Of a stretch of 39,363 nt of DNA, positions 9,539-32,442 are shown piece after piece. Location of the stretch: the NCBI GenBank assembly GCA_031263295.1, contig JAISGC010000092.1, forward strand, positions 1 through 39,363. The letters run 5' to 3'. Each line of letters begins with the position of its first letter. The stretch's first letter is position 1. This stretch comes from Rickettsiales bacterium (lineage in GTDB: Bacteria; Pseudomonadota; Alphaproteobacteria; Rs-D84). The notes beneath the pieces were generated by a model. The model had not been told where the DNA came from, did no database searches, and was given only the letters and a program-made list of their open reading frames with translations. Made by a program: the position numbers and the translations under genes.

Positions 9539-9679
9539 ATGCCGTTGAAGAAAAAAAATAAGTTTCGCAACAAGGTTGTTTTCTGGATTGCGATGGCGGC
9601 CCTGCTTGCGCTGGCGTTCTATGTGCCGAAGCATCCGAACGCGGGCAGGTCCGGCGAAATCGAGTATGAATTATACTGA
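9539..9679 (+). CDS. Possible small membrane protein (46 aa), below ORF-track cutoff
   Basis: ATG at 9539 is preceded by AGAAAGAGAAAAGA. The product is MPLKKKNKFRNKVVFWIAMAALLALAFYVPKHPNAGRSGEIEYELY: a basic N-terminus followed by one TM. It overlaps the xerD start by 14 nt. There is no homology evidence. Confidence 0.25.
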   Translation: MPLKKKNKFRNKVVFWIAMAALLALAFYVPKHPNAGRSGEIEYELY

Positions 9680-10535
9680 ATTATTTTTGGAATCGCTGTC
9701 GGCCGAAAAAGGGCGCGGCGCGAAGACGCTCGAATCTTACGGGCGGGATCTGGCGCAGGCGTCCGCCGCGGTCGGCGATTTGGCGGCGGCGACCGCCGCG
9801 GATTTGCAAGACTTTATAACGGGCCTCGTTCGCAACGGCGCGGCCGCGACATCGGTCGCGCGCAAATGCTCGGCCCTCCGCGGATATTATAAGTTTCTGA
9901 TGATTGAAAAAATAATTTCGGAAAATCCAGCCGCCGCGCTGGATTTGCCGAAGCGGACGAAAAAACTGCCCGGCGTTCTGACCGCAGACGAAATCGACCT
10001 GTTGATTTCGCAGGCCGACGATGCAAAGCATTCCGCGCGCATCCGCGCGATGATAGAGTTGTCCTATGCGTCGGGCCTCCGCGTTTCGGAGCTGTGCGAG
10101 CTGAAAATAAAATCAGTCCTGGGCGACCGGCTTCTCGTCAAAGGCAAGGGAAGCAAGGAGCGCATCGTTCCGATGCACCGCGAGGCCGCGGCGGCGCTTG
10201 AAAAATATATGGCGGTCCGCGATGCATTTCCGAATAGTGAATCACCGTTTGTCTTTTGTTCGTCCGGCGCGTCCAAGCACATCACGCGCGACGGATTTTT
10301 CAAGATTATAAAAAAGTGCGCGGTGCTCGCGGGCATCTCCCCGGAGCGCGTCAGCCCGCACAAGCTGCGTCATTCCTTCGCGTCGCATCTGTTGGAGAAC
10401 GGCGCGAATCTGCGCGCGATTCAGGTTATGCTCGGACACGAGGATATTTCGACGACGCAAATCTATACACATGTCCGCGCGGACAAATTAAAGAACGATG
10501 TTTTCAAGCATCATCCGCTCGCAAGGAATAAATAA
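9666..10535 (+). CDS. xerD: Tyrosine recombinase XerD (XerC/XerD family)
   Basis: The start is placed at ATG 9666 (MNYTELFLESLSAEKG...). Catalytic-domain blocks are ASGLRVSEL, KGKGSKERIVP, HKLRHSFASHLLENGANLRAIQVMLGHEDISTTQIYTHV and a C-terminal HHP. Confidence 0.8.
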   Translation: MNYTELFLESLSAEKGRGAKTLESYGRDLAQASAAVGDLAAATAADLQDFITGLVRNGAAATSVARKCSALRGYYKFLMIEKIISENPAAALDLPKRTKKLPGVLTADEIDLLISQADDAKHSARIRAMIELSYASGLRVSELCELKIKSVLGDRLLVKGKGSKERIVPMHREAAAALEKYMAVRDAFPNSESPFVFCSSGASKHITRDGFFKIIKKCAVLAGISPERVSPHKLRHSFASHLLENGANLRAIQVMLGHEDISTTQIYTHVRADKLKNDVFKHHPLARNK

Positions 10536-11234: not shown

Positions 11235-12026
11235 TCAGCATCCTTCCGGAAATTTGGGAATATCGAAGTTCGTATTTTCCTCCCCAAGGATTACTCCCTC
11301 TCCGTCCGTGCATCTTGCTTTGCCTTCCGGAATGACTTTTAACCAATCTTTGGCGGGCGCTCCGGTGGATGTCCTGAAATTATCCCGCAGGCATCCCATT
11401 TTTCCGTTTCCGCCGTCCGTGCGCTTCATCTCTGCGTCTGTCAGATAACGCGCCGCCGCGGCTTCGCCGTAAAATACATTCCCGGCAAAAGGCATCGTGA
11501 AGTCGAGCGATTCCGCGATGCGGTTTTGCTGGCCTGCTATCCAGCAGAACTTCTGCTTGCCCGGCGCGGGGTCGCCGAATGTCGCGTTGTTGCATTTAAC
11601 TTTGGCGTCCTTGGCGAAGCGCTGGCCGATTGTAAATCCAATATAAACGATTTTTTTCGCGTTGCATTCCGCGTCGGATAGTTTCGGCGCCGCAGCGGGC
11701 GTTGCCGCAGGAGCCGCGGCGGATGTCGCGGTTGCCGTGTTTGCGGGCGGCGTTGCCGCGGAAGATGCGGCGAACGACGCCTCGCGCCTGGCCATAGTTA
11801 TTTTCGCGTCGCATTGCGCGTTCGTAATCATTTCGGCCTGCTTTTTTTGCAAATCGGCCAGTTGGTTTTTCAAGGCGGCTATGTCCGGGAACGCGCAGTC
11901 CGGGACCGATACCGCGCGGTTGATGCAGACCTTGGCGCAGTTTTGGAACACGCCCGAATCGACATTCACGGCCCGCGCCGACATCGCGGCCGCGATAAAG
12001 AACATAGTGGCGAAAAGTTTTTTCAT
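11235..12026 (-). CDS. Secreted Cys-rich protein, paralog 1 of 3 (unknown function)
   Basis: The start is placed at ATG 12024-12026 (MKKLFATMFFIAAAMSARA signal peptide). It has a conserved N-terminal block VF.NCAKVCINR...PDC.FPDI..L..QLADL, an Ala/Thr/Pro linker, and a C-terminal domain with KCNNATFGDPAPGKQKFCW. Confidence 0.75.
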   Translation of the reverse strand: MKKLFATMFFIAAAMSARAVNVDSGVFQNCAKVCINRAVSVPDCAFPDIAALKNQLADLQKKQAEMITNAQCDAKITMARREASFAASSAATPPANTATATSAAAPAATPAAAPKLSDAECNAKKIVYIGFTIGQRFAKDAKVKCNNATFGDPAPGKQKFCWIAGQQNRIAESLDFTMPFAGNVFYGEAAAARYLTDAEMKRTDGGNGKMGCLRDNFRTSTGAPAKDWLKVIPEGKARCTDGEGVILGEENTNFDIPKFPEGC

Positions 12027-12240
12027 ATAAAATCCATTTGCGCATCGACCATCGCCACCCGAAGCATCGCCCAAGGTGGTTGGAGTTTCATAACAATCGT
12101 TTTCGGAATTGCGTGCTTATTCGGTATATTCGCACACTCCAACCGGTATTGTTGGAGCATTTATCGTCCCTTCGGACGCGAAAACTACGGGTTATGAAGC
12201 CCGGCGCGAGGATTTCCCGCGCTGGGGGAATTATAGCATA
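12027..12240 (-). promoter_or_regulatory. Promoter (TGcTATAAT) plus conserved structured leader, copy 1
   Basis: The extended -10 is on the minus strand (plus-strand ATTATAGCA at 12230-12238). The leader shares hairpins and the duplicated CUCCAAC / GGUUGGAG blocks with 13262-13460 and 27140-27337. Confidence 0.6.
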
Positions 12241-12300
12241 AAAGATTGGAAAGTTAAAGAGTGAAAAATGCGCGACGCAGTGCGGTTCTTCGCCACCACC

Positions 12301-12335
12301 CCGCCCCGCCGGGACCCTGCGGGCCCGCGGGGCGG
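12301..12335 (-). terminator. GC-rich hairpin 3' of paralog 2 (terminator-like)
   Basis: CCGCCCCGCCGGGACCC-TGC-GGGCCCGCGGGGCGG forms ~15 bp with two bulges. It begins 12 nt after the stop at 12347. Confidence 0.45.
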
Positions 12336-12346
12336 AGCAGGCGAGG

Positions 12347-13261
12347 CTAGTCGCAGCCATCCATCAGCCTGAATGAATCTGGAATATTGAAGATGGTATT
12401 TTCTTTCGCCAAAAATCTTCCGTTGCTGTCAAAGCAAGATAAATTGCCTTTGTCTTGATTATACCAGGTTTCCGCCGGTGTCGAAAAACGATCCCGACCG
12501 CATCTTATTGCCATCTTGCCGGTCGCCTCTTGCTCCGTAAGAACATTCGGCCTTGAATCTGCGCCGAAAAACACCAAGGCGTTATAAGGCATTGGGATAT
12601 TCATGGTGCCTTCCGTCCAACGATTAAACTGGCCCAGAATCCAGCAAGATTTCAGTTTGCCGGGCGCAGGATCTTTGGAAAAACCTCTCCTCGAATCTAC
12701 TTTGCAATCGAATGAGTCGCCCATTGTAAATGCTTTGGTTGTTATTGCCGAAGCCATATAGATGATTCTTTTTCTGTCGCATTCGGCCTTCGTGAATGGC
12801 AGCACCTTTATTGTAGGGTCGGTCTTGGCCGGGTTTGCCGTCGTTATTTTCGCGTCGCACTGCGCCGCCGTAAGGTGGTCCGCCTTTATTGCGGCGAGCT
12901 CTTTTTTCGAATCGGCCAATTGCGATCTCAACGCGGCGATGTCCGCGGAGGCGGCCCCGGCCGCGGCGGTGTTTTTCGTGTCGCATGCCGCCGTCGCCGC
13001 CTGCTTTTCCGTCGCCACTTTCGTGTTGCACTGCGCCGCCGTAAGGTGGTCCGCCTTTATTGCGGCAATCTCTTTTTTCGAATCGGACAATTGCGTCTTC
13101 AAGGTTTCTACATCTGGGGACGGGGACGCGCAGTCTGGGAAAACGGCGTTGTTTATGCAGGCCTTGGCGCAGCTTTGGAATACGGATGCGGGCACATTGA
13201 CCGCCCCGGCCGCAGATGCCGCCGCCGCGATTGTTGCGGCAAAAACGAAAAATATTTTCAT
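12347..13261 (-). CDS. Secreted Cys-rich protein, paralog 2 of 3 (with internal 57-codon duplication)
   Basis: It has the signal peptide MKIFFVFAATIAAAASAAGA and the same N-terminal block as paralog 1. The coiled segment L..QL.DSKKE.AAIKADHLTAAQC is present twice. The C-terminal domain contains DPAPGKLKSCW. Confidence 0.75.
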   Translation of the reverse strand: MKIFFVFAATIAAAASAAGAVNVPASVFQSCAKACINNAVFPDCASPSPDVETLKTQLSDSKKEIAAIKADHLTAAQCNTKVATEKQAATAACDTKNTAAAGAASADIAALRSQLADSKKELAAIKADHLTAAQCDAKITTANPAKTDPTIKVLPFTKAECDRKRIIYMASAITTKAFTMGDSFDCKVDSRRGFSKDPAPGKLKSCWILGQFNRWTEGTMNIPMPYNALVFFGADSRPNVLTEQEATGKMAIRCGRDRFSTPAETWYNQDKGNLSCFDSNGRFLAKENTIFNIPDSFRLMDGCD

Positions 13262-13460
13262 ATCAATCCTCCTTTCGTAAATCCGCCATTGCTATGGCGG
13301 TTGGAGGTTTACGACAATTTATGAGAATTGTGCCGCTTATTCAATATATTCGCGCGCCCTCCAACCGATGGTTGGAGCGATTTTCGTCCTGTTCGGACGC
13401 TCATAATCGGGTCGTAAAACCCCATCGCGGAAAATCCCGCGACGGGGGAATTATAGCATA
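13262..13460 (-). promoter_or_regulatory. Promoter (TGcTATAAT) plus conserved structured leader, copy 2
   Basis: Plus-strand ATTATAGCA is at 13450-13458. The SD AGGAGG lies 7 nt before the ATG. This copy carries compensatory variants relative to copies 1 and 3 (GGUUGGAGG/CCUCCAACC; CCGCC/GGCGG). Confidence 0.6.
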
Positions 13461-13492
13461 TATTGTGGGTTGCGGGGAAATGAAAAAGAACA

Positions 13493-13572
13493 AAACTAAA
13501 ACAAAAAATTGCAAAGCAATTTTTTGTCATTCCCGCCTGCGCGGGAATGACAAACCACTTCGTGGTTTGTTT
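13493..13572. repeat. Core-less triple-hairpin repeat (chimera of the ends of elements at 22952 and 25916)
   Basis: It consists of CAAAAAATTGC-AAA-GCAATTTTTTG, then GTCATTCCCGC-CTGC-GCGGGAATGAC, then AAACCAC-TTC-GTGGTTT. 13493-13536 is identical to 25907-25950, and 13529-13572 is identical to 23091-23134. Confidence 0.8.
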
Positions 13573-13596
13573 ATGATTTCATAATAAATAAGGCAA

Positions 13597-13965
13597 TTAC
13601 TTCACAAGGTCCGCGCATTTGGGGGACGGGTTCACGGTTACATAATTCAGCGCGATTGCGAAATAGCAGGTCGGGCAGTTCAATTCTTCCAAGGCCTTGG
13701 CCGCGTCGCCGTCGTATTTCGCCAGGACTTTCTCGACATGGGCCTCTTGGTGCGCGATTGTGTCAATCGCGGTCATATAATCGTCCCACGGGAATGTCTT
13801 TTTAAGCTCGCGCACTTCGCAGTCGCAATATTCCTTGTTATTATTATGCGCGTCCATACAAAAGGCATGCGTGTCTTTCAGCGTCGTTTCCTTCACAAGG
13901 TCCATCGGATCCGTGCCGCATGAAGCGAGCAGGGCGAGCGATATTACGGAAAGTATTTTTTTCAT
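13597..13965 (-). CDS. Putative lipoprotein (122 aa, unknown function)
   Basis: It has a signal peptide with the lipobox LLASC and 7 further Cys residues. I recognise no family. Confidence 0.6.
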   Translation of the reverse strand: MKKILSVISLALLASCGTDPMDLVKETTLKDTHAFCMDAHNNNKEYCDCEVRELKKTFPWDDYMTAIDTIAHQEAHVEKVLAKYDGDAAKALEELNCPTCYFAIALNYVTVNPSPKCADLVK

Positions 13966-22944: not shown

Positions 22945-22951
22945 AATCAAA

Positions 22952-23135
22952 ACAAACGATTGCGCAAGCAATCGTTTGTCATTCCCGCGAAAGCGGGAAT
23001 AGGGTTCTAAACCTTACATTCAGCTACTACTTGTTTTCCAGATTACATTTGTATGTGAAACAAGTTTGTTGTTATAAGGCTGAAAGCCCTATTCCCGCCT
23101 GCGCGGGAATGACAAACCACTTCGTGGTTTGTTTT
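22952..23135. repeat. Nested palindromic element A (terminal hairpins + two ATTCCCGC-N4-GCGGGAAT hairpins + ~90-nt imperfect palindromic core)
   Basis: A 12-bp-stem hairpin at 22952-22979 lies just 3' of recA. It is followed by GTCATTCCCGC-GAAA-GCGGGAAT, the core at 23002-23089, ATTCCCGC-CTGC-GCGGGAATGAC, and AAACCAC-TTC-GTGGTTT. 22978-23038 is the exact reverse complement of 26015-26075. Confidence 0.8.
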
Positions 23136-23197
23136 TGTTATTTTTGATTTCATATGCTTTTTATGATATAATCCCCACAAAATAAAAGGATTTGTCT

Positions 23198-25826: not shown

Positions 25827-26172
25827 GTTCCCCTCCTTTGGAGGGGTGCCGCCCGACACACATCGTGTGGTGGGCGGCGGGGTGGTGCTTAAAGCGGGAG
25901 CTGTCGAAACTAAAACAAAAAATTGCAAAGCAATTTTTTGTCATTCCCGCGCATGCGGGAATGGGGCTTTAAGACTTCTAGCGAAAAACTTGTTACACAC
26001 ACAACGAACATTGTGAAAACAAGTAGTAGCTGAATGTAAGGTTTAGAACCCTATTCCCGCTTTCGCGGGAATGACAAAAAATCCTTTCAGGATTTTTTGT
26101 TTAAGTTTTGTCAGTGCCAATGTGAAGCACCACCCCGGCCGCTCCGCGGCCACTCCTCCAAAGGAGGGGAAC
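25827..26172. repeat. ~346-bp composite palindrome: GTTCCCCTCCTTTGGAGGGG module / nested element B (25916-26099) / inverted module
   Basis: Module 25827-25903 and its inverted partner 26124-26172 flank element B. Element B runs: hairpin CAAAAAATTGC-AAA-GCAATTTTTTG, GTCATTCCCGC-GCAT-GCGGGAAT, the core, ATTCCCGC-TTTC-GCGGGAATGAC, and hairpin CAAAAAATCC-TTTC-AGGATTTTTTG. Confidence 0.8.
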
Positions 26173-26779: not shown

Positions 26780-27069
26780 AACTCCGCGAGTTTCGTCTGA
26801 CCGGCGAAATGCGCGCTTGGCGGGGCGCGGAAAATATACCAAAGAATGCCGACTACGGCGACGCCGCCGACCGCCGCGATTGCAAGCGCGGTCCCGCCGT
26901 TGCCGCCGGACTTCCCGCCCGATTTATAGACATTGCAGCCCGGGTCTCCGTTTGTGCAGCTGGGCAGATTTGAGCCCGTGCCGGTATCGCTCGGGCCGCC
27001 GCGCGGCGAATCGACCGCGCCCGCCGCGAACGCGAGCATCGAAAATAAAATCGCGACGATTGTCTTCAT
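26776..27069 (-). CDS. Small signal-peptide plus C-terminal-TM protein (97 aa, Gly-rich)
   Basis: It has the signal peptide MKTIVAILFSMLAFAAGA, a Gly/Ser-rich middle and the C-terminal TM ALAIAAVGGVAVVGILWYIF. It has no obvious SD. Its stop overlaps the stop of the convergent 187-aa gene (TTAA). Confidence 0.4.
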   Translation of the reverse strand: MKTIVAILFSMLAFAAGAVDSPRGGPSDTGTGSNLPSCTNGDPGCNVYKSGGKSGGNGGTALAIAAVGGVAVVGILWYIFRAPPSAHFAGQTKLAEF

Positions 27070-27139
27070 TTATTTTATTAAAGCAAAATCCGCGCCATCG
27101 GGCAAACAGAATCTGGTTGTTTTCAGGAATCGAATCTTG

Positions 27140-27337
27140 TATAATTTCAACCAGCGGGATATGCTATTCCGCCGGGCCTTATAACCCGTCTTTTGAGCGT
27201 CCGAAGGGACGATAAATGCTCCAACGATTTCGGTTGGAGTGCGGCGAATATGCTGAATAAGCCGCGCAATTCTCAAAGATTGTTATAAGACTCCAACCAC
27301 CTGCGCTAAGGCTTCGGGTGGCAACAGGGAGGATTTT
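27140..27337 (+). promoter_or_regulatory. Promoter (TATAAT 27140-27145) plus conserved structured leader, copy 3
   Basis: The blocks are CGTCC-GAAG-GGACG (27198-27211), CTCCAAC (27219-27225)/GTTGGAG (27233-27239), GCGGC-GAATATGCTGAATAA-GCCGC (27241-27265) and CAATT/GATTG (27267-27282). These are followed by the second CTCCAACC (27291-27298), CCACC/GGTGG (27296-27321) and SD GGGAGG (27327-27332). Confidence 0.6.
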
Positions 27338-28087
27338 ATGAAAAAGTTTATCGCAATGGCGATGATTGTTCTGGCGGCCGGGCGCTCGCCCGCCGTCGAT
27401 GTCGCTGGGCGGATATTCACGAACTGCGCGACCGTATGCATCAACCGCGAGCTGAACGCGCCGGACTGCCAGTTCCCGGACATCAGCGGTCTGAACGGCC
27501 AGCTGGCCGACTTGCGAAAAGAATTGTCCGACATAAAGGCGGATCATCTGACGGCCGCCGAGTGCGGCGTCAAGACCGCGGCCGCGGTTGCCGCGGTTCC
27601 GGCATGTCCGACTTGCGCGCCCGCGACGACTACCGCGACAACTCCGTCCGTCACGACGGCGACAACTCCGCCTGACGCGGGGACGACCACTGCGTCAACC
27701 TCGGCGGTCAGTCTCGAATGCGCCCAACGAAAGCGCGTTTATTACGGCATTATGAAAAAGAAAACCATAACCGCCGGGACATCCGTCAAATGCGACAACG
27801 CGACATTCGGCGACCCGAAGAAAGGCGCGAGCAAAAAGTGCTATGTCGACGGCATCCGAAAGGCCGACGAAAACGGCGGGTTTTCAATGGAGGCCGACGG
27901 GCTCGTTATGTATGGGCTGATAGATGTGAGAGAAATCACTTCGGCCGCCGAAATGAAATGCGACAATAAAACATTCGAGGATCCGGCCAAGGGCGCGAGC
28001 AAGAAATGCTATGACTGGCAGGGCAACGAAATAGCGGACGAGAACAAGAGCTTCACTCCGCCGAATCCGAAGCCGACGGGGTGCTAG
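27338..28087 (+). CDS. Secreted Cys-rich protein, paralog 3 of 3
   Basis: It has the signal peptide MKKFIAMAMIVLAAGRSPA, the shared N-terminal block (IFTNCATVCINR...PDCQFPDISGLNGQLADLRKELSDIKADHLTAAEC) and a Thr/Ala/Pro linker. The C-terminal domain has two copies of KCDN.TF.DP.KGASKKCY. Confidence 0.75.
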   Translation: MKKFIAMAMIVLAAGRSPAVDVAGRIFTNCATVCINRELNAPDCQFPDISGLNGQLADLRKELSDIKADHLTAAECGVKTAAAVAAVPACPTCAPATTTATTPSVTTATTPPDAGTTTASTSAVSLECAQRKRVYYGIMKKKTITAGTSVKCDNATFGDPKKGASKKCYVDGIRKADENGGFSMEADGLVMYGLIDVREITSAAEMKCDNKTFEDPAKGASKKCYDWQGNEIADENKSFTPPNPKPTGC

Positions 28088-30906: not shown

Positions 30907-31143
30907 TTTTCGGCTTTATTCTTTTGTCGGTTTGTGATACCATTCCGGTGCGTCCGAAAGGGGCCGAGACCTGAAAATCTCGATAGTGAACGCGCACGAA
31001 TAAAGCGCGTAAAAAAACATTCCCGCTGAAATAATTGGCGGGATTGTGGCCGCCATATATTGAAAGCGGCTGCGATCGTTTTCACTACGATTTTTTCAGA
31101 ATCCCGCCGCCTTTTGGAAGAAAATAAACCAAAAGGTGGAATT

Positions 31144-32442
31144 ATGAGAAAAATTTTATTTATCGCGGCGATGATGGCCGCTGCGCGTTCCGCATCCGCG
31201 GGCGTCGCATTCCTGAAATCGGAAATGTCGTTTGATTACGAACGCAGGCATGAGTATGGATATGCCAGAGTGAATGCCAGCGATATTCTGGATTCAAAAC
31301 TTCTTGGAACGAAAGGATGCCTGACATCAGATTGCATGATGGCGTGTAGACATACTGACAAATACGATAGTTGTAGCAGTATGTTCAACTGCGCCGAAGA
31401 ATCGGCTGTCAATAGTTTAGATTTTTATGTGAGCATGGACAATTGCGGCAATGGGGCGTATTTAAGATACAGCGGCCAGCTGGGGAGCGACCAAATGGCT
31501 TTCAATTGGACATATCCGAAAGGCTCCGATTCCAACGGACAACAGATTCTTAATCCCGTGATGTCCGAGGCGATTGCGGCCTGCAATGAAATCCCGGTCG
31601 GCGAGCTGAATAATATAAAGGGCGTTATGACCGGTGCGGCCGTCGTGTCCGGAATCGGGGCCGCCGGAAATCTCGCCGCCAGCGCGGGCAATATCTATGG
31701 CGCGGTCAAGAACGGCCAGGCGGCCGCGGGCGAATCGGCCGACGCGACAACCGCAGTGGCGGCGCCTGCGGCGTCGGCCGAGACCGCAGTTGCGACGAAC
31801 GGCAATGGTCTGAAACCGGGCGAAGCATTCAAGGGTCAACAGATGATGAACACGATAACCGCCGGTGTCGGTGCCGCCGCCGGAACAACATCGACCATCA
31901 TCAACGCGGCCTCCGCGGGCAAGCTGGGCAAGATAATCGACCAAATCGAGGGCTGCAAATCCGCGCTCGGCAAGGTAACGGCTGCCGCGTCAGACACCGC
32001 GTCATTGGAGGAGCAGATGGCCGCGTCGAACAGCAAATCCGACGCCAAGTCCGCCTGCAATAAAATCAGTGTGTCCGACATAAAGAATCTTAAAGGCGCG
32101 ATGGTCGCCGCCGCCGTGATTTCGGGAATCGGCGCGGCCGGGAACATCGCATCGACCGCCGGGAACATAGTCGGCGCCGTTAAAAACACGCAGGAGAAAA
32201 AGGCGGTCGATTCGGCGGCGCCGACCAATGGCGAAACGGCCGTCGCGCCGGGCGAGGTCGCGAGCGGCGGCTTAAAGCCGGGCGAATCGTTCAAGGGTCA
32301 GAATATCGTCAATGTCGCATCCGCCGGGGTCGGCGCGGCGACCGGCGCAGTCTCGACCGCCATGAGCGCGGCCGCGGCCGGAAAGCTGGATGGCATAATC
32401 GCTGGCGTTGAAAAATGCCGCGACGCCGTGTCCAAATTGTAG
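31144..32442 (+). CDS. Secreted protein with Cys-rich N-domain and two Gly/Ala-rich ~130-158-aa repeats (unknown function)
   Basis: The start is placed at ATG 31144, preceded by AAAAGGTGGA. It has the signal peptide MRKILFIAAMMAAARSASA. Repeat 1 starts at Cys147 (31582) and repeat 2 at Cys305 (32056). Both contain C-N-.-I-.V..(I/L)-.N(I/L)KG...AA.V(V/I)SGIGAAGN...GLKPGE.FKGQ...AGKL...I...(E/K)-C. Confidence 0.6.
   Translation: MRKILFIAAMMAAARSASAGVAFLKSEMSFDYERRHEYGYARVNASDILDSKLLGTKGCLTSDCMMACRHTDKYDSCSSMFNCAEESAVNSLDFYVSMDNCGNGAYLRYSGQLGSDQMAFNWTYPKGSDSNGQQILNPVMSEAIAACNEIPVGELNNIKGVMTGAAVVSGIGAAGNLAASAGNIYGAVKNGQAAAGESADATTAVAAPAASAETAVATNGNGLKPGEAFKGQQMMNTITAGVGAAAGTTSTIINAASAGKLGKIIDQIEGCKSALGKVTAAASDTASLEEQMAASNSKSDAKSACNKISVSDIKNLKGAMVAAAVISGIGAAGNIASTAGNIVGAVKNTQEKKAVDSAAPTNGETAVAPGEVASGGLKPGESFKGQNIVNVASAGVGAATGAVSTAMSAAAAGKLDGIIAGVEKCRDAVSKL

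Follow-up and report, generated by a model that had tools for sequence, protein, structure and literature searches.

A multi-copy leader RNA with pseudoknots and an exchangeable pairing strand, a candidate cis-acting attenuator of uncultured gut Alphaproteobacteria

In a 39,363-nt stretch of DNA from a Rickettsiales bacterium (contig JAISGC010000092.1 of assembly GCA_031263295.1; this whole stretch is hereafter called the window), three genes for secreted, Cys-rich proteins are preceded by the same structured leader, which an initial annotation had proposed as a candidate cis-regulatory RNA. We found that this leader is a new, widespread, multi-copy RNA family that was previously uncatalogued. 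Each copy is a cassette consisting of a near-invariant TATAAT box, an RNA of ~180 nt in which nine helices covary strongly, two pseudoknots among them, and usually an intrinsic terminator. Within the RNA, one strand, B (GGUUGGAG), can pair with either of two CUCCAACC copies, A, with which it forms a local hairpin, or C. With moderate confidence, we propose that the leader is a cis-acting attenuator whose state is set by an effector.

The three leaders are present where they had been annotated, with every listed element in the same block order. The window has exactly three occurrences of GCGAAUAU-NNN-GAAUAAGC (27244-27262(+), 12115-12133(-) and 13335-13353(-)), and a covariance model of the family, R1, run with filters off, matched the three copies at 115-130 bits (E ~1e-28 to 1e-31). 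The first copy (c27) extends from an inferred start at 27146 to the end of its last hairpin at 27321 on the plus strand (123.4 bits, E 6e-30). The two others lie on the minus strand: c12 at 12055-12235 (114.6 bits; -10 box 12230-12235, RNA from ~12229 to 12055) and c13 at 13283-13455 (129.7 bits; -10 box 13450-13455, RNA from ~13449 to 13283). The open reading frames (ORFs) downstream, 27338-28087(+) (249 aa), 11235-12026(-) and 12347-13261(-), are paralogs encoding Cys-rich products with signal peptides. The mean column identity of the three leaders is 75% in a MAFFT alignment, confirming that they are about three-quarters identical and that the encoded proteins are more diverged (29-36% pairwise). 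Between pairs of copies, identity is 66-78% in the leader, 52-59% in the coding sequence and 44-48% in the 200 nt upstream of the -10 box. The similarity is thus limited to the leader, and recent gene conversion does not explain it.

The family extends far beyond the window. A scan of one genome per species with the pattern GGTTGGAG-N2-8-GAATAT-NNN-GAATAA returned at least 116 stretches from at least 80 species-level assemblies (counted by accession prefix); three further loci, in Paenibacillus, Chryseobacterium and Omnitrophota, are chance matches. The other loci belong to metagenome-assembled genomes (MAGs) of gut Alphaproteobacteria labelled Candidatus Enterousia, 'Rickettsiales' or Alphaproteobacteria, which come from ruminants, humans, chickens and other animals, and several MAGs hold 3-5 loci each among the matches listed. 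R1, built from 109 aligned copies (183 positions, 38 base pairs), gave 113 matches in loci L001-L100 and 23 more in L101-L121, including copies that do not contain the search pattern; tandem pairs or triplets were found in L065, L069, L011, L083, L035 and L107. The leader therefore precedes the three Cys-rich paralogs, as annotated, but is not specific to them, since it stands before unrelated genes in at least 80 genomes. The leader was also seen on IMG/VR contigs called viral (L117:12016-12197, L118:8437-8617, L119:764-945 and L121:5460-5663), adjoining a DNA methyltransferase-like gene and a PLD/Nuc-family nuclease and preceding the gene for a secreted protein or an ABC exporter; these copies are probably prophage-border or host DNA. 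A blastn search of the leader against plasmid and phage databases gave no match.

The family matches no catalogued RNA. When the whole window was searched with Rfam 15 (4227 models, including riboswitches, T-box, ribosomal-protein leaders, ROSE and alphaproteobacterial small RNAs), only one tRNA passed the gathering threshold; the region 27050-27400 searched at E<=10 gave chance matches only, none over the conserved blocks; and in ten Enterousia-type loci, again only tRNAs passed the gathering threshold. A literature search using sequence blocks, Enterousia and RF32/structured RNA found no description of this leader RNA, in line with the initial view that it belongs to no described class.

Each cassette is headed by a -10 box, in c27 at 27140-27145(+), which forms a near-invariant block in the alignment (T 97/105, A 103/108, T 77, A 92, A 99, T 107/112). 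A TG lies two bases 5' of it in about half of the copies, and the box stands 7-8 nt before the first hairpin. A simple promoter/terminator scanner missed both signals, since it was faced with an extended -10 promoter and with terminator loops longer than 8 nt, and it was replaced by direct counts. The elements of the RNA follow in the order H0, H1/X1, X2, H2, an A-rich linker, A (CCUCCAACC), a short loop, B (GGUUGGAGG), H4, H5/X2', X1', C (CCUCCAACC) and T.

In c27, all on the plus strand, H0 (27151-27175) is a 5'-terminal hairpin of variable sequence, in which 7 of 7 pairs show double-sided changes among the 109 sequences. It is followed by H1 (27174-27187), a GGG/CCC stem that is 88.9% paired and whose loop has C27177 and X1 (27178-27185, CUUAUAAC), and by X2 (UUUUGAG, 27191-27197). 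The hairpin H2 (CGUCC-GAAG-GGACG, 27198-27211; double-sided changes in 5/5 pairs) is missing from a short subclass that precedes one helix-turn-helix (HTH) family. A (CUCCAAC, 27219-27225) and B (GGUUGGAGU, 27232-27240) are the first and second segments of the putative attenuator. H4 (27241-27265), with the stem GCGGC/GCCGC, is 96.5% paired, and all five stem pairs covary; it closes the loop GAAUAUGCUGAAUAA (27246-27260), which carries the most conserved bases of the RNA (GAAUAU...GAAUAA) and consists of two half-sites that can be separated by a hairpin, as in L075 and L011. After G27266 comes H5 (CAAUU...GAUUG, 27267-27282), whose stem is CUAU/AUAG or CAAU/AUUG in the family (90.6% paired; columns 187-207 U-A 61, A-U 35) and whose loop is X2'. 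X1' (GUUAUAAG, 27282-27289) leads into C (ACUCCAACC, 27290-27298), the third segment, whose AACC is also the base of the terminator stem in relatives. The last hairpin, T (CCACCUG...CGGGUGG, 27297-27321), forms segments 3-4; its stem covaries (A-U 65, G-C 36 at columns 226-247), it lacks a U-tract in c27, and it is followed by a Shine-Dalgarno (SD) sequence at 27327-27332 and the AUG at 27338.

All helices listed in the initial annotation are real, but two pseudoknot helices and one tertiary pair had been missed. The first pseudoknot, X1:X1', joins the H1 loop to the 7-9 nt just 5' of C, and 8 of its 8 pairs covary (columns 57-214: A-U 42, C-G 39, G-C 10, U-A 10), as in UCAGAAC/GUUCUGA, UCAUAGC/GCUAUGA and CCGAAAG/CUUUCGG; X1 has 72 distinct sequences, with a complementarity score of 7.4 for native partners versus 5.2 for permuted ones. 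In the second, X2 pairs with the H5 loop over 6-12 bp (109 distinct sequences; 7.8 native versus 4.9 permuted); its c27 version, with CUCAAAG at 27272-27278, is part of the minimum free energy (MFE) fold. The tertiary pair connects the first H1-loop base with the single base that separates H4 from H5 (columns 54 and 185 of the alignment: C-G 48, U-A 37, A-U 5); it is the long-range Watson-Crick pair C27177-G27266 in c27, C-G also in c12 and U-A in c13. H1 and H5 both covary, each having one G-C pair in common with X1:X1', and G53, C62, C186 and G208 can pair either as 53:62 and 186:208 or as 53:186 and 62:208. A correlation was also seen between columns 96 and 127 (G27206 and G27218 in c27; A-U 21, G-C 21, C-G 7, A-A 15), the last H2-loop base and the base just before A, which could be another tertiary pair or a subfamily signal.

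For the pair counts, an explicit structure that contains the X1:X1' pseudoknot was applied to the alignment of 109 sequences. Standard pairs are formed in 88.3% of the cells, compared with 39-45% when the 3' partners were slid by 1-3 columns and ~72% after shuffling. The covariation score is 0.458, against 0.07-0.10 for slid and 0.17-0.18 for shuffled alignments, and none of 500 shuffles reached the observed value. Double-sided changes occur in 35 of 46 pairs; the compensatory changes first noticed between the window copies are real and recur across the 109 sequences. The alternative structure with B:C gave the same picture (across both structures, 88.3-89.6% paired and 35-36 of 45-46 pairs double-sided), and a mutual-information scan ranked the modelled pairs at the top and added only 54:185. 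The search pattern constrained no element but B and the H4 loop; covariation in the remaining helices is therefore independent of retrieval.

These counts bear on the proposal that the leader is a DNA-level repeat without RNA function, such as a mobile promoter cassette, a miniature inverted-repeat transposable element or a set of operator sites. Such a repeat would be multi-copy, at times tandem and placed before unrelated genes, as the leader is, and copies do occur on 3-4 predicted viral contigs. It would not account for pair-preserving double substitutions in nine helices, long-range ones included, for the tolerance of G-U wobble, which is workable only in RNA and on one strand, or for the fixed strand and distance to the downstream gene; moreover, no terminal inverted repeats or target duplications were seen on reading the copies, although no dedicated repeat search was run. 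We regard a pure DNA repeat as extremely improbable.

Strand B has two possible partners. In the alignment, B:C is 99.1% paired and A:B 89.9%. B:C is always perfect over 8-11 bp, whereas in A:B the outer end usually contains a wobble or a mismatch, and B9:C1 covaries (G-C 81, U-A 18, U-G 7, mismatch 3) with a poorer fit to A. The corresponding segments lie at 12151-12157 (A), 12136-12144 (B) and 12078-12086 (C) in c12, whose conserved loop is at 12117-12131, T at 12055-12079 and AUG at 12026-12024, and at 13370-13377, 13358-13366 and 13299-13307 in c13 (loop 13337-13351, T 13283-13300, AUG 13261-13259). The deciding evidence is from diverged copies found by the model and not by the pattern, in which A, B and C change jointly: the triples read CUCCUGACC/GGUCAGGAGG/CCUCCUGACC in L036 and L058, CUUCUGCC/GGCAGGAGG/CCUCCUGCC in L015, UCCCGACC/GGUCGGGA/CUCCCGACC in L014 and UUCCCGAC/GGUCGGGG/CCCCGACC in L026. 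In L035, A (CCUUUCAACC) and C (CCUCCCGCCCC) are unlike each other, yet both pair with B (GGGGUUGGGAGG) through G-U pairs, indicating that selection keeps the pairing and not sequence identity. The mutually exclusive, switch-like layout first seen in the window copies thus holds in the family, where A, B and C covary as a triple and C overlaps the terminator stem.

One of the jointly changed triples belongs to a fourth, diverged copy in the window, at ~30943-31143(+) upstream of ORF 31144-32442, which the initial annotation had passed over while listing the three strong ones. Its R1 match is weak (15.9 bits, E ~0.01, at 30941-31148 with filters off). Read base by base, it has all elements in order: A is UUCCCGC (31020-31026), B GGCGGGAUU (31037-31045) and C AAUCCCGCC (31111-31119), all on the plus strand; H4 (31046-31073) has a shorter loop, CAUAUAUUGAAA; X1' is UUUUCAG (31104-31110); and X1/X1' and X2/X2' are complementary. 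C and the last hairpin (31115-31139) have 5 nt in common, and AAGGUGG, the 3' strand of that hairpin, is itself the SD of ORF 31144-32442, whose product has a signal-peptide-like N-terminus. None of the four secreted proteins encoded downstream of leaders in the window, this one included, matched a Pfam or NCBIfam family. Different A/B/C triples within one genome, as in the window, imply that the common partner of A and C is the intramolecular B, not a shared trans factor.

The third segment connects this exchange to an output. Of 116 copies, 104 passed a test for a hairpin directly followed by a U-rich tract, with medians of -9.8 kcal/mol, 9 bp and 6 U among the 8 nt after the hairpin; c12 and c13 of the window are among the 104 but were set aside as false positives because their U-run lies in or near the coding sequence. 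In 78 of the 104, the terminator stem opens with the A of C's AACC, and so the pairing B:C (GGUU:AACC) and the base of the terminator are mutually exclusive. The last hairpin, annotated as a CCACC...GGUGG stem, is therefore present as described, but in most family members it is an intrinsic terminator, and in most relatives this terminator is the output element, in place of the initially suggested masking of the SD by CUCC. The window copies have no U-tract. In c27 and c13 the SD follows 5-9 nt after the hairpin, and in the fourth copy it lies within T, so that in the window lineage the switch probably acts on translation, a step deduced from the layout.

The position of the leader agrees with the cis-regulatory placement proposed at first: a co-oriented SD and ORF follow 104 of 116 copies, at a median of 50 nt after C. 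Among 96 downstream proteins searched against Pfam, XRE-type HTH domains (HTH_31, HTH_19, HTH_3) were found in 8-11, Listeria-Bacteroides repeat surface proteins in six, ABC exporters in two, and a DNA methylase and a family-2 glycosyltransferase in one each; most of the 96 have no Pfam family and are short, Cys-rich proteins with signal peptides.

A different reading of the same cassettes is that they encode abundant stand-alone small RNAs (sRNAs) with their own promoter and terminator, acting in trans as protein sponges or by base-pairing, in which case downstream genes would be expressed by incidental read-through, or through a secondary dual function like that proposed for the Bartonella RNA Brt1. 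Every copy is a full promoter-RNA-terminator unit, some orphan and tandem copies have no downstream ORF of their own, and copy number is high (four in 39 kb here, at least five loci in one MAG among the matches listed). The Brt RNAs, which share this layout, are among the most abundant transcripts, and trans action has also been proposed for them (PMC5387305, PMC8070961). By contrast, ~90% of the copies are followed, after a short and fixed interval, by a co-oriented start codon; A, B and C differ between copies of one genome, which leaves no single common trans target, and their covariation is intramolecular; and the overlap between C and the terminator base is conserved, though needless for a plain sRNA. 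We consider action in trans as the main function rather unlikely, though it is the chief rival of the cis reading.

It is also conceivable that the leader is a constitutive structured 5' untranslated region that stabilises the mRNA or sets its expression level and duplicates together with its promoter, with no signal-dependent switching. A hairpin (H0) at the very 5' end, diverse downstream genes and one state strongly favoured in the MFE fold would all be expected of such an element. In that fold, found for the window copies and most others, H0 is followed by a closing helix of X1:X1' and X2:X2' and a four-way junction of H2, A:B and H4, with C single-stranded and T formed. A constitutive role is nevertheless unlikely, as both exclusive partners of B are maintained by compensatory change, a terminator between promoter and gene makes little sense without regulated read-through, and the pseudoknots and the invariant H4 loop are more than stabilisation requires.

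We thus return to the effector-set attenuator. Each copy is a self-contained cassette with a sigma-70-type promoter, a ~180-nt leader and an output hairpin, and would control the adjacent gene in cis. The RNA family, its helices, the joint change of A, B and C, the promoter, the overlap with the terminator and the placement in cis are observed; the direction of the switch, the geometry of the junction and the effector with its nature belong to the model. Its sensor domain would comprise H0, H2, H4, the pair 54:185, and H1 and H5, which embrace each other, the H1 loop pairing with the tail after H5 and the H5 loop with the tail after H1. The four segments would then work as in an attenuator, with A:B (1:2) as anti-antiterminator, B:C (2:3) as antiterminator and C/T (3:4) as terminator. 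When A:B forms, C would be free, T complete and transcription stopped; in the window lineage, where T has no U-tract, the effect of T would be to block or mask the ribosome-binding site. Formation of B:C would occupy the base of T and allow the gene to be expressed.

The sensor and the exchange may be coupled through the strand path. B runs on to H4, H4 to position 185, 54 to X1 and X1' to C, and in the modelled B:C state the helices B:C, H4, 54:185 and X1:X1' would constitute a local perfect four-helix junction. Because X1' runs directly into C, folding of the pseudoknotted sensor would present C to B and so promote the change of partner from A to C. The balance between A:B and B:C would be set by an effector at the junction or at the H4 loop, which could be a small ligand or an RNA-binding protein.

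Several points weigh against this model. The effector is hypothetical, and the switching itself is predicted from sequence. Since B was fixed by the search pattern in most sequences, the A/B/C covariation rests on ~12 pattern-independent copies that were read by eye. With nested-only folding, a forced B:C lies ~12 kcal/mol above A:B in 108 of 109 sequences; this gap is probably overestimated and the true one small, because nested folding drops the pseudoknots in the B:C state. The window copies keep the hairpin without a U-tract, so that the output mechanism in the window organism is a prediction. Orphan or tandem copies without a gene of their own (L018, the first copies in L083 and L011, and three in a row in L107) fit a stand-alone RNA. 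Finally, the downstream genes have no common pathway, unlike those of most metabolite riboswitches.

As to the nature of the effector, we tentatively raise the possibility, which we hold to be less than even, of a new riboswitch class in which the pseudoknotted sensor binds a small signalling molecule or a host-derived metabolite and drives B from A to C. The RNA has a complex covarying fold and an invariant unpaired H4 loop upstream of an expression platform, as riboswitches do, and we use the ligand-binding label as a hypothesis drawn from these features. The mixture of surface, secreted and regulatory genes resembles the targets of second-messenger riboswitches or global regulators, a resemblance that is only a lead. 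If the riboswitch reading were true, one signal would govern a large regulon of surface and secreted proteins, XRE regulators and exporters through dozens of copies per ~1-Mb genome in genome-reduced, uncultured gut Alphaproteobacteria.

The bacteria concerned, Candidatus Enterousia and its relatives, are widespread in the guts of humans, ruminants and birds; they are uncultured and have reduced genomes, and to our knowledge almost nothing is known of their gene regulation. An RNA cassette before many of their surface-protein and regulator genes would amount to a major RNA-based regulatory layer. With its loop-tail pseudoknots, which are reciprocal, and a strand that alternates between two identical partners, the leader would be an unusually clear natural two-state RNA, and the abundant covariation already defines its structural model. 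A ligand or protein partner, if found, would reveal a signal sensed in the gut and provide a portable promoter-plus-switch module.

Some further features were seen around the leader copies. In the window, whose organism has a GC content of 54%, an XerC/XerD-like tyrosine recombinase gene (9576-10535(+); Phage_integrase and SAM-like N-terminal domains) lies ~700 bp away from where the tandem pair of leader-gene units (11235-13460) ends; as repeat cores that may be inverted lie nearby, a part in rearrangements is conceivable. A second repeat family occupies 13490-13600, 22950-23170 and 25912-26132 and contains the palindrome (C/U)ATTCCCGC-NNNN-GCGGGAAT(G/A) at five sites versus none expected, with terminator-like bidirectional hairpins (AAAAAATTGCAAAGCAATTTTTT) on its flanks. 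The loci at 23k and 26k each have a core of ~90 nt between two palindromes; this core is apparently reverse-complemented between the loci, which suggests, from the sequence arrangement, an element like repetitive extragenic palindromes or bacterial interspersed mosaic elements (REP/BIME), or an invertible or mobile element. Weak R1 matches at 22975-23149 and 25914-26101 fall on this family. Outside the window, a few orphan copies have another conserved segment, GGAAUCUG(U/C)CC...AUCUCCACA...GGGCAGAUUCC, after the terminator in place of an ORF (L104:1095-1180(+), the minus-strand copy of L067, L056 and L099); this segment may be a second structured element.

Several known systems share parts of this design, and the leader could in principle be a diverged member of a described class, such as a T-box, a ribosomal-protein leader, a known riboswitch, a ROSE thermometer or Brt. 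The general attenuator layout and the Brt-like genomic logic upstream of XRE genes speak for this. We judge it very unlikely in view of the Rfam 15 search, which gave no match even at E<=10, of the failure of R1 to find anything on the sense strand of two Brt loci, and of the lack of a conserved leader peptide. For a T-box in particular, no Rfam match was found, B varies (GGUUGGAG, GGUCAGGAG, GGCGGGA) so that there is no fixed UGGN, and the downstream genes are secreted proteins and regulators. A ribosome-mediated attenuator was rejected, as segment 1 is overlapped by neither a start codon nor an SD in c13 and the Enterousia copies. In c27, an AUG directly before A opens a 14-codon ORF (MLQRFRLECGEYAE; AUG-CUC-CAA..., ending at the UAA of the conserved loop, 27216-27260), and c12 has the same AUG in a different frame (12117-12160); being absent from c13 and the Enterousia copies, this AUG probably does not open a leader peptide. 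A pairing of A or C with the G-run of H1 was also dismissed as a trivial G-run/C-run match that is not conserved in c27.

Classical four-segment attenuators include the trp leader, with its 1:2, 2:3 and 3:4 helices, and the Bacillus subtilis pyr leaders, with the anti-antiterminator logic of PyrR. The leader has the same three mutually exclusive helices, A:B, B:C and C/T, and the same sharing of bases between antiterminator and terminator, and in the family, an intrinsic terminator between promoter and gene is accompanied by both antiterminator and anti-antiterminator helices. It differs in having no conserved leader peptide, which means that the switch is not ribosome-mediated, no known PyrR, TRAP or BglG-type binding motif, and a large pseudoknotted domain attached.

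Pseudoknotted riboswitches likewise have a complex conserved fold with invariant unpaired bases near a promoter and a terminator platform. The closest by gene association are the cyclic di-GMP-I (GEMM) riboswitches, which occur in many copies per genome, at times in tandem, before surface, secreted and regulatory genes. The leader differs from riboswitches in matching no Rfam model of them and in that the exchanged strand B belongs to an internal helix and is not the 3' strand of a closing P1. The ROSE thermometers of Rhizobiales are also multi-copy alphaproteobacterial 5' elements between promoter and gene, and the hairpin of the fourth copy masks an SD as theirs does; however, ROSE is a simple row of hairpins before small heat-shock genes, whereas the leader has pseudoknots, a terminator and unrelated downstream genes, and the Rfam search, whose library is taken to include ROSE, gave no match to it.

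The closest described system is Bartonella Brt/Trp, which is like the leader in genomic logic, not a detectable member of its family. Brt1-9 are nine highly expressed RNAs of ~200 nt, each standing directly before an XRE-HTH gene (trp) without its own promoter; deletion of the Brt 3' stem-loop raises trp1 transcription, and the signal is unproven, with heme suggested (PMC5387305, PMC8070961). Brt RNA is absent from Rfam. The published Brt 5' sequence led to Brt loci on Bartonella plasmids, and R1 with filters off gave no sense-strand match in those of B. kosoyi pTLV-1 and B. grahamii pBGR3 (best 1.4 bits), a one-way test for which no Brt model was built. A 12/15-nt likeness between AGAAUAAAUCCGCU and UGAAUAAACCCGCU seen by eye was not backed by R1, the matches of a Brt 19-mer in a metagenome scan were all chance ones in GC-rich coding DNA, and Brt sequence fragments gave nothing in a text search. 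The plasmid loci show that Brt-type RNAs, described as chromosomal, are also present on plasmids (L148:701-900 in pTLV-1; L149 in pBGR3), divergently placed beside an annotated HTH regulator, with an alternative pairing of UUCCGGGAG with CUCCCGGAA or a local hairpin CCCGGAACUCCGGG.

Brt lacks the GGUUGGAG, CUCCAACC and GAAUAU..GAAUAA blocks and their order, and it is reported only in Bartonella and only before HTH genes, whereas the leader belongs to another bacterial order and mostly precedes secreted proteins. Both are nonetheless alphaproteobacterial, multi-copy RNAs of about 200 nt, highly conserved between copies, with their own promoters, alternative pairings and a 3' stem-loop acting, in Brt, as a transcription attenuator just before a small XRE-type HTH gene lacking a promoter. 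The leader has the corresponding promoter and 3' terminator along with the 8-11 Pfam HTH matches given above, and at least 11 of its 96 downstream genes are of the XRE-type HTH kind, although most are not HTH genes. By analogy, the parallel suggests that multi-copy attenuator cassettes before XRE regulators may be a recurring alphaproteobacterial strategy that has arisen more than once.

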